Shown here: positions 5,026 through 7,246 of the stretch, in pieces
How positions within the stretch are numbered: the stretch's first letter is position 1
Layout: each line of letters opens with the position of its first letter
Notes under the pieces: generated by a model
Database searches by the model: none
Told to the model about the DNA's origin: nothing
What the model saw: the letters and a program-made list of their open reading frames with translations, nothing else
Source: Macrostomum lignano
Lineage: Eukaryota
Reading direction: 5' to 3'
DNA length: 64,000 nt
Assembly (NCBI GenBank): GCA_002269645.1
Contig: NIVC01003342.1
Coordinates: 39,262 to 103,261 of the forward strand
Program-made: the position numbers and the translations under genes

Positions 5026-7246
5026 ACGTAGTTTCTGGCCATTTTGGGTCTTGCTGTTCTGCTTGATAGTTAGGTGGTTGTATTCTTGGTGCCGTTGGTG
5101 TTGTCGGAATCGATGGATATAGCCGCGTTGCTAGTGTCGGTTGCCCTTGAACCTCACGATGTGCAGTTTCTGTTAGTTCTAAACTGTTGTCGCCTTCCGT
5201 TGTCGTTCTTTGCATTATGGCATTCACTGTCTTCTTAGCTCTTGGACAAGTTTGACTGAAGCACCGTACGATTGACGAAATGATGAAGATTGCCGTGACA
5301 ATCCACACAATGCAAGCACCGTAGAAGATGAATCCTTGATAGAGACTGCCTCTTCCATTGAGCAGCTCCCAGAAGCTGTTTGTCCAAAATGATTTGATGG
5401 CGCTGTCCATTGAAACAAGGACGGGAAATCTTCCTGTCCCGGTTCCTTTGTCCTTTCTTGTGAACAGCTGGTGAATCATCTTGCGTTGGGTGATGAACGC
5501 TTGCAAGAAGTCGTTGATCGTCCATCCTGGTGTTATCTCGTCAAGTTGGATATCGGCGAATGGCGTATACTTCGTTCTGTTGAATCGGATTTTCAAATCC
5601 TCCATGTCGTAGTTTTCGTCGACGATTACTTCCGGTTCTGTGATGTTTGCTGTCGTTCCAGTTGTTTTGATGACGTGTAGTGCATTGTCCAGTTGATAGT
5701 AGTTTGCTGCCGTGGTGCAGGGTCTCGGTATTGCGGTGCCAACTATGATGTTGTGTACCGTGTCCAAGAATCCCTGAATTCGTTTTCCTTCGTAGAACGC
5801 TTCAATCCTTGGCTTGTCGTAGCAGGTTGTTGACGTGTTCGACGGCAAGATGTTAAAGTGCTGTATCGGCGTGCACTTGTATATCAACAGATGCTCGTAT
5901 ATTGGAACTGCCAAAACGTTCGTCATTCCGGTGATTTTACGAAAAGTCATCGTAGGGTTGACATAGTAGTTTTGTCTGGCATAATTTAAGTTGATTGCGT
6001 GCATTTTGCAAGTTAGCTGGACCAGTGTTCGATGCAAGTGGTTTAACTGGTTGTGTAGATTGTGATCCAAAGCCGTTATCTTTGCTGACAGTAGTCGGTT
6101 TGACACCAGTTTGGGACGTTCGATGTCACGTCGTCGTCTGTTCTGTTGTTCCTGCTGTTGATAAGTTCCGTTGATGATCGCCAGAAAGGTTTGTTTGTCG
6201 TCATCTTTTACGTAGACTGGTATCTCTTGTTCCGAGATGAATAGTGTCTTGTCTGTATCCTTGCATTTCAGTTTTTGCTCGACTGGTTTCTTTTGAAACG
6301 TCAGTGCCAAGTCTCCTGACTTTGCCAAAAACGTGTTTGACAGTAGGCCTCCTTCCACTGTGTGGTACTTTTGTAGTTGACAGTCGATTTCCGTCTCAAC
6401 CTTCCAAGCGAAGAAATATTGTCGTGACTTTGATGGTTCTTCGTAGTGTGGATCGGCTCTGTGCACTATCTGCCATCGATAGTCTGGATGATACGTTGGA
6501 CTCAGCGGTAGGCTGTAGAGTTCTGCATTTCGCAATATCGGCGTTGGGCACCATCCTTCGCTGTATCGGCATTCACTTAGTTGCAGTTGCAGTGATTCCA
6601 TTTTCTCGTACGGATTGTAGTAGAACGGAACATTCCTGATTAGGTAGCTGTTGCGTGCCGTGTAGTCAGGCCATCTTTCATTATAGTGGACATATCGACC
6701 GTTTGCCACATTCTTTGTTCGGAAGAGTTGTGCGTTGCCGACCTTTTCATCAGGTTCTAGTACACCATCTTTGGAGAACAATGTCTGGTTCCATCGTAGG
6801 CAGTCAGCGTGCGACACATGTAGCTCATGCTGTCGGAATCGGATTCTGTTCCATTGTCCTCGCCATATTTTTTCGACTAGGTGCTTGTCTCTGAAGCACA
6901 CTATTCCGAGTTGTCGATGCTTCTTGATGTTAGCTTTGTAGAGATCAATTGTGATCTTCTTTGGCTTCGTCTGGTTTGTCTTGAAGTAGCTGCATTTGAT
7001 GTCGGTTGGTATCTTGTAGATCATCGGTTGGATATGCGCATCCGTTGGACATATCATTGGTTTTTCCATTGCTGTTGCTTTGGTGACTACTGCCGTCAGT
7101 AGTATTATGATGATCCAGAATATCCAGAATCGCCATTTCCTGAACGTTGCCGTTGTCTTTGCTGGCATTGGCTGCGGCTGCCATTCGTTATCTTCTGCGT
7201 CCGCATCGTATTCTTCCTCTTGTTCCATTGGCGTTTCCGAGCGCAA
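4817..7246 (-). CDS. env: Env: class III (herpes gB-like) fusion glycoprotein
   Basis: Hydrophobic signal segment at 7135-7070 ending in A-T-A. Six N-x-S/T sequons, 12 ectodomain Cys, furin site RRRR (6139-6128). gB-like motifs LYKANI and VNPTMTFRKITGMTNVLAVPIYEHLLIYKC. TM helix at 5332-5267. The frame is open from 7318. Confidence 0.85.
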   Translation of the reverse strand: MRSETPMEQEEEYDADAEDNEWQPQPMPAKTTATFRKWRFWIFWIIIILLTAVVTKATAMEKPMICPTDAHIQPMIYKIPTDIKCSYFKTNQTKPKKITIDLYKANIKKHRQLGIVCFRDKHLVEKIWRGQWNRIRFRQHELHVSHADCLRWNQTLFSKDGVLEPDEKVGNAQLFRTKNVANGRYVHYNERWPDYTARNSYLIRNVPFYYNPYEKMESLQLQLSECRYSEGWCPTPILRNAELYSLPLSPTYHPDYRWQIVHRADPHYEEPSKSRQYFFAWKVETEIDCQLQKYHTVEGGLLSNTFLAKSGDLALTFQKKPVEQKLKCKDTDKTLFISEQEIPVYVKDDDKQTFLAIINGTYQQQEQQNRRRRDIERPKLVSNRLLSAKITALDHNLHNQLNHLHRTLVQLTCKMHAINLNYARQNYYVNPTMTFRKITGMTNVLAVPIYEHLLIYKCTPIQHFNILPSNTSTTCYDKPRIEAFYEGKRIQGFLDTVHNIIVGTAIPRPCTTAANYYQLDNALHVIKTTGTTANITEPEVIVDENYDMEDLKIRFNRTKYTPFADIQLDEITPGWTINDFLQAFITQRKMIHQLFTRKDKGTGTGRFPVLVSMDSAIKSFWTNSFWELLNGRGSLYQGFIFYGACIVWIVTAIFIISSIVRCFSQTCPRAKKTVNAIMQRTTTEGDNSLELTETAHREVQGQPTLATRLYPSIPTTPTAPRIQPPNYQAEQQDPKWPETTYVLYTPKLAKHGSSGNQQSTMSSATRFRQLHHSYIKTTVQQATTCSTASNNRSCRSRRTFAKHSGKSRH

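Follow-up and report, generated by a model that had tools for sequence, protein, structure and literature searches.

Structure of the element

Positions 1–10564 of the window, the 64,000-nucleotide stretch of Macrostomum lignano DNA analyzed here, hold a Ty3/gypsy long terminal repeat (LTR) element (Metaviridae) on the minus strand, as are all of its features given below. The element is bounded by two LTRs with TG...CA ends, namely a 5′ LTR of 1075 bp (9490–10564) and a 3′ LTR (1–944) that starts 128 bases ahead of the window's first position, and a 4-bp target-site duplication is present on both sides. Because the LTRs are identical at 944 of 947 aligned columns (over the part of the 3′ LTR inside the window) and the target-site duplication is recognizable, the insertion is young. 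The primer-binding site (9476–9487) is the same 12-mer as that listed for Mlig_errantivirus_2 in supplementary file 1 of PMC13524379. Together with a Pol order of protease, reverse transcriptase (RT), RNase H, and integrase, these are the features of Ty3/gypsy elements, and the placement of env between gag and pol is that of the GAG-ENV-POL errantiviruses with an HSV/gB-type Env. Such errantiviruses are described from nematodes, bryozoans, and flatworms in the available text of Chary and Hayashi (PMC13524379, citing Sacco et al. 2022), and the primer-binding site and Env type indicate that the window's family is apparently the one catalogued there as Platyhelminthes_Rhabditophora_Mlig_errantivirus_2. 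A named M. lignano UniRef protein (P0001) is 96–97% identical to this family, and word-based database searches with Env matched only P0001 and one other protein, P0002.

Coding begins with Gag, which has a CCHC knuckle, and continues with a hydrophobic helix, an ectodomain, a second helix, a proline-rich linker, protease, RT, RNase H, and integrase. Gag (7142–8802) comprises a capsid-like region, a single CCHC knuckle at 8056–8097 (a weak match to zf-CCHC, E 0.062), and an acidic spacer, with a frame break near 7280–7290 in the window copy. The aspartic protease (4700–5038) has its catalytic LDSG at 4942–4953 and is interrupted in the window copy by frame breaks near 5030 and 4990. RT and RNase H (2953–4023; RVT_1 E 1.6e-28, RT_RNaseH E 4.4e-35) include the YVDD motif at 3688–3699, and the integrase (1468–2838) is broken near 2830–2860 and 1590 in the window copy.

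The Env ectodomain (5333–7069), about 580 residues with six N-glycosylation sequons and a furin-type RRRR at 6128–6139, lies between the two helices. Its match to Pfam Monjiviricetes_fusion is weak and below cut-off (E 2.3e-5). A structure model of medium confidence (mean pLDDT 59.6, pTM 0.32) was compared with the PDB by Foldseek, and among the matches listed all were herpesvirus gB (best E 1.1e-15, with a low TM-score of about 0.22); as modeled, Env has a gB-like class III fold. The first helix (TM1, 7085–7141; hydropathy about 2.2–2.3) is preceded by basic residues and is predicted to act as an internal signal/anchor between Gag and Env. The second (TM2, 5267–5332; hydropathy 2.43) is the predicted Env anchor. 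It is followed by the segment between Env and protease (5039–5266), predicted to be cytosolic, a topology derived solely from hydropathy. This segment ends at a W-P pair, both residues of which are nearly invariant across ten lineages of related elements in this genome. Retroviral proteases often start with proline, and a cut at the conserved W-P would thus leave a cytosolic Env tail of 76 residues.

The Env tail as a linker within one polyprotein

At least 40 sequences in the M. lignano genome closely match this region, and 37 copies were fetched nearly whole. In eight of these 37 copies, a single open reading frame (ORF) of at least 2450 aa (2461–2538 aa) encodes all domains, Gag through integrase, and in six of the eight it runs to the usual stop; in 30 of the 37, no frame break separates TM2 from the protease. 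The frame breaks of the window are specific to that copy, which is gapped relative to 30–37 of the 37 others near 1590, 2830, 2860, 4990, 5030, and 7280, all outside the motifs considered below; near 5030 and 4990, all 37 differ from it by a gap. On these grounds, the family encodes one Gag-Env-Pol polyprotein. The apparent end of Env at 4817 is a product of the two breaks that follow the motifs near 5030 and 4990, and the breaks are either assembly errors or mutations of the window copy. Programmed frameshifting between gag, env, and pol was considered and rejected, given the eight uninterrupted copies and the six break positions that the other copies do not share.

An earlier note made from the sequence had described the segment after TM2 as the cytoplasmic tail of Env. 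In the precursor it is not a free C-terminus, the natural copies showing a linker of about 76 residues that joins Env to the protease until the predicted cut. The same note's proposal of a membrane-anchored polyprotein is supported, natural copies reading Gag-TM1-Env-TM2-linker-protease-RT-RNase H-integrase in one frame.

The database protein P0002 skips, in frame, exactly 33 residues carrying all three motifs (window 5048–5150). P0002, at 3074 aa, is a chimeric model in which several further stretches are skipped, and no joint removing the motifs was present in the contigs of eight runs, contigs being prone to drop rare variants; the apparent splicing-out of the motifs is likely an artefact of the gene model. 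Contigs of four runs showed no indel over the motif region relative to a natural copy. Among the listed holders of element sequence, none had an RNA origin on record.

Three late-domain motifs downstream of the second membrane helix

The minus-strand frame 4817–7318 reads RLYPSIPTTPTAPRIQPPNYQ, which holds core sequences of all three classes of late domain (P[TS]AP, YPxnL, and PPxY). LYPSI, of the ALIX type YPx[LI], lies at 5108–5122, PTAP, of the TSG101 type P[TS]AP, at 5087–5098, and PPNY, of the NEDD4/WW type PPxY, at 5066–5077. The three are thus clustered in the Env frame within 19 codons (5066–5122), as the earlier note had reported, and the block begins about 48 residues past TM2. Its placement on the cytoplasmic side of Env also agrees with our predictions, in which the motifs lie downstream of TM2 in a proline-rich stretch contiguous with the protease. 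When the 83-residue linker was shuffled with its composition retained, LYPSI, PTAP, and PPNY occurred jointly in 5 of 500,000 shuffles, a figure that, being post hoc, is an upper bound on surprise.

Late motifs had been said not to be obvious in Gag. This held for PTAP and PPxY, which are absent from it, but one minimal YPxL (YPAL, 8575–8586) is present in the capsid-like region. A full-length natural copy of 2480 aa, scanned for late-domain patterns, matches them solely at the three sites in the linker.

On the host side, the M. lignano genome contains a TSG101 UEV domain at three loci (E 8e-45 to the human TSG101 domain) and has matches to the ALIX V-domain. Prediction of a complex between the host UEV and the tail peptide, made without folded controls, scored 0.28, under the mark of 0.34, and counts neither for nor against binding.

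Conservation within the family and among lineages of the same genome

Among 41 family copies, [LM]YPSI and PTAP are present in all, and PPxY in 39, the two exceptions both being broken copies. The x of PPxY varies between N, I, G, and T while P, P, and Y stay. Five further, more divergent family copies read PPTY, one of them without PTAP. Subfamilies differ from one another at 13 and 15 of the 49 linker residues upstream, compared with 3 of the 19 residues that make up the motif block, and none of the ten motif core residues is changed, with three silent changes in those codons; this contrast between core and upstream linker is weak evidence when taken alone.

A search of the genome with Env returned 142 matches down to about 20% identity, and the 40 fetched represent ten lineages, all laid out as TM-Env-TM-linker-protease. 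The linkers carry P[TS]AP in 8 of the 10 lineages and YPx[LI] in 7, against 0.28 and 0.40 expected from shuffles, but PPxY in only one (0.52 expected), the window's own family. Small P values from these counts overstate the case, as the lineages are related (three deep clades plus lineage H); at the level of deep groups, P[TS]AP is present in three of four and YPx[LI] in two of four. Lineage H has none of the three motifs and lineage G is without P[TS]AP. Outside the linkers, which total 875 aa, 17,695 aa of sequence contain one P[TS]AP, three YPx[LI], and four PPxY. Conservation of the motifs among relatives, which the earlier note had named as the check on its claim, is therefore borne out for P[TS]AP and YPx[LI], both retained above their flanks. 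For PPxY it holds only within the family and as an enrichment in distant tails (see below), and a conserved triple cluster is not supported.

An RT tree recovered three deep, fully supported clades with stems of 0.5–1.2 changes per site, each including both P[TS]AP and YPx[LI]; lineage H lacked an RT in the fetched stretch, and lineage I, whose RT may belong to a neighbouring element, was placed with F and G by its linker only. Motif order and spacing differ by clade, namely YPxI followed by PTAP, PTAP followed by IYPKI, and PSAP followed by LYPTL 26 residues on, and the linkers are hardly alignable across lineages apart from the motifs. From these alignments, the pattern looks like turnover with retention. 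PPxY or PSAP also occurs on the Gag side of TM1 in lineages B, B2, D, and E, so the Env tail is not the sole site of such motifs, and some lineages may split them over both cytosolic sides of Env. The Gag-side spacers before TM1 of loci L082, L085, L092, and L096 have PPPY, PPAY, PSAP, and PPRY.

Late-domain motifs in distant Env tails

Searched against 1.84 billion proteins, an Env-only profile matched 490 with E no higher than 0.001. Tails were sought in 152 proteins (148 of the best 150 of these and four other Env-bearing proteins), and 80 had a locatable transmembrane helix with a tail of at least 25 aa. P0121, being identical to lineage D, was set aside, and the 79 distant tails that remained come mainly from the best 150 of 490. 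Within this set, P[TS]AP occurred in 9 tails against 0.68 expected from shuffles, PPxY in 12 against 1.53, and YPx[LI] in 8 against 2.28. Any motif was present in 23 (4.33 expected) and none in 56. Reversed motifs stayed at chance (0, 1, and 3 versus 0.77, 1.59, and 2.21 expected), and the rearranged pattern PPYx was somewhat raised (6 versus 1.53). In the 38 tails whose Env is fused to protease, P[TS]AP, PPxY, and YPx[LI] numbered 3, 9, and 5 (0.39, 0.74, and 0.97 expected). All three motif classes thus extend to distant relatives in excess of shuffles, which reversed motifs do not.

Tails with a motif are dispersed across the Env tree (18 changes over 89 rows), with 14 of 37 proteins in one large clade and 5 of 37 in a clade with Meloidogyne proteins; the two named gag-env-pol proteins of Meloidogyne are among the 56 whose tails have no motif. 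Named hosts of motif-bearing distant proteins (5 of 20 carry names) include Caenorhabditis angaria, Haemonchus contortus, and Acrobeloides nanus. In the lumenal control, P[TS]AP was found in 6 of 79 proteins versus 0.95 expected, largely at one inherited ectodomain position, and kinship can therefore inflate motif counts. At the level of sequence, the motif set is real, above chance, partly conserved, and widely enriched.

A proposed role in particle release and its alternatives

We propose, with a probability of roughly two in three, that the polyprotein is threaded twice through the membrane with Gag and Pol in the cytosol and Gag anchored, and that the linker serves as a late domain recruiting ESCRT for scission. 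TM1, acting as an internal signal, would give rise to two membrane crossings that leave Gag and the linker with Pol in the cytosol and Env in the lumen. Gag would thereby be tethered to the membrane without a matrix domain, Env and Pol would be loaded into particles through their covalent linkage, and the motifs would be positioned directly under the membrane at the bud neck. There the linker could recruit TSG101 through PTAP, ALIX through YPxI, and, in the window's family only, a NEDD4-type ligase through PPxY, and ESCRT would pinch off enveloped particles at the plasma membrane or into endosomes. After release, cutting by the protease at the conserved W-P would leave the motifs on the Env tail. 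A wider reading, to which we give somewhat less than an even chance, is that Gag-Env-Pol errantiviruses in general are built from a twice-membrane-spanning polyprotein in which the fusogen tail, rather than Gag or matrix, drives ESCRT scission, with this capacity gained repeatedly across invertebrate lineages and PTAP, YPxL, and PPxY interchangeable; it would be the first concrete link between errantiviruses and ESCRT.

The same motifs could bind ESCRT or NEDD4-type ligases for sorting instead of scission, directing Env or the polyprotein into endosomal or exosomal routes or ridding the cell surface of surplus fusogen. Cellular cargo adaptors use the same motifs, and their conservation across lineages and distant tails fits sorting equally well. 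Drosophila ZAM particles, moreover, use endosome and exosome pathways, according to the available text of a review (PMC3383448). We nonetheless regard a sorting role in place of scission as improbable, if still to be reckoned with, in that two to three motif classes within 10–30 residues are a viral late-domain pattern in the available text of PMC8402826 and PMC2958808, and no other budding signal is evident in the element; none of nine Gag N-termini inspected starts with Met-Gly, the true start being unsure for some.

Two further explanations concern the linker itself. It may be an old p6-like C-terminus of Gag, left in place when env was inserted between nucleocapsid and protease, so that its motifs would be Gag late domains by descent; this account concerns origin and is compatible with a role in budding. 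HIV-1 p6 and EIAV p9 likewise lie directly upstream of the protease, and in several distant carriers (P0149 and P0160) the protein consists of Gag and Env, with the tail as its C-terminus, as such an origin would allow. EIAV p9, in the available text of PMC8402826, has YPXL. Yet motifs preceded the protease in none of 36 env-less database polyproteins and in none of eight loci of gypsy families in this genome without a transmembrane helix before the protease, both samples being small and expected to yield few matches. The glycoprotein of Beihai rhabdo-like virus 3 (P0260), an RNA virus relative of this Env, carries PPPY in its own cytosolic tail, and the difference in motif order between clades suggests repeated gain, all of which makes descent from a Gag terminus unlikely. 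Least probable to us is that the linker is only a spacer, rich in proline and threonine, giving the protease room to dimerise at a distance from the membrane, its motif matches being due to chance or inheritance and having no ESCRT function. Linkers are 9–21% proline, the majority of distant relatives have no motif, and related sequences share motifs by descent, all of which a spacer would accommodate; it does not readily account for a 3.5- to 13-fold enrichment of the true motifs in distant tails, where shuffles and reversed motifs remain at chance, or for their persistence at non-homologous positions across deep clades.

Relation to known systems

The gag-env-pol order, and apparently the element's family, are already published, and within the literature searched, late-domain motifs on the Env tail are the new part. 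The errantiviruses described in the available text of PMC13524379 share with ours the gene order, a gB-type Env between two hydrophobic helices, and multiple near-identical copies; in contrast, late-domain motifs and a continuous Env-tail-protease reading are not described in that text, and the terms ESCRT, late domain, budding, cytoplasmic, polyprotein, and single ORF are all absent from its main text. The available text of the review PMC3383448 describes any link between errantiviruses and ESCRT as unknown; for gypsy Gag, it notes a sorting motif like that of EIAV. No report of a retrotransposon Env tail with late domains was found in the open-access literature searched, and the available text of PMC12801592 and PMC5408684 holds nothing further on Env tails.

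The retroviral late domains of HIV-1 p6 (PTAP and LYPxnL), EIAV p9 (YPDL), and HTLV-1 Gag (PPPY and PTAP) resemble the linker in drawing on the same three classes of motif and in grouping them in a proline-rich segment, probably disordered in the linker, that immediately precedes the protease. Theirs, however, lie in Gag, bound to the membrane through matrix, whereas in this element an ectodomain in the lumen and two membrane crossings would stand between Gag and the motifs, which would finally be carried by Env. Flavivirus and alphavirus structural polyproteins also run from capsid through an internal signal and a lumenal glycoprotein back to the cytosol in one chain, but the likeness is of topology alone, those viruses having class II fusogens and no reverse transcriptase. 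Budding information has been proposed to reside in the cytosolic tails of hantavirus Gn and hartmanivirus GP2 (available text of PMC6261641), which likewise place a proposed budding signal in a glycoprotein tail where a matrix protein is missing; these are, however, RNA viruses whose motifs are not PTAP/YPxL/PPxY clusters and whose tails are not fused to a polymerase. Should the proposed mechanism hold, it would offer a route from retrotransposon to enveloped virus without a matrix domain, in which a fusogen is inserted into the polyprotein and bears the signal for budding on its own tail. With three canonical motifs in a 19-residue stretch of a young, multi-copy element in a genetically tractable flatworm, the proposal is testable.

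Accessory reading frames and other repeats

Between the integrase and the 3′ LTR lies a degenerate, RING-like accessory ORF (1166–1378) that starts with Met-Gly and matches Baculo_IE-1 weakly (E 0.033). Other copies and lineages A, B, and B2 have one or two longer cysteine-rich ORFs (about 105–230 aa) with two RING-like repeats, and ORFs related to that of the window are present at loci L024, L027, L034, L035, L082–L086, and L088. By their sequence, the RING-like ORFs are possibly accessory ubiquitin ligases, and the Met-Gly start suggests myristoylation; the arenavirus Z protein is alike in outline only. The M. lignano genome harbors at least ten coexisting lineages with the gag-env-pol layout, of which E, F, and G (for example, L094, L096, L104, and L111) have two CCHC knuckles rather than the one of the window's family.

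Elsewhere in the window, a tandem array at about 49700–54500 consists of about 186 copies of a 24-nt unit that are roughly 80–85% alike, and short degenerate tandem repeats occur in the host flank at 11306–11563 (23-nt unit) and 15165–15771 (a repeated open frame). Inverted dispersed repeat copies at 17115–17333, 19817–19888, 44412–44656, and 61922–62009, with arms of 72–96 nt that are 82–98% complementary, probably represent a small interspersed element.
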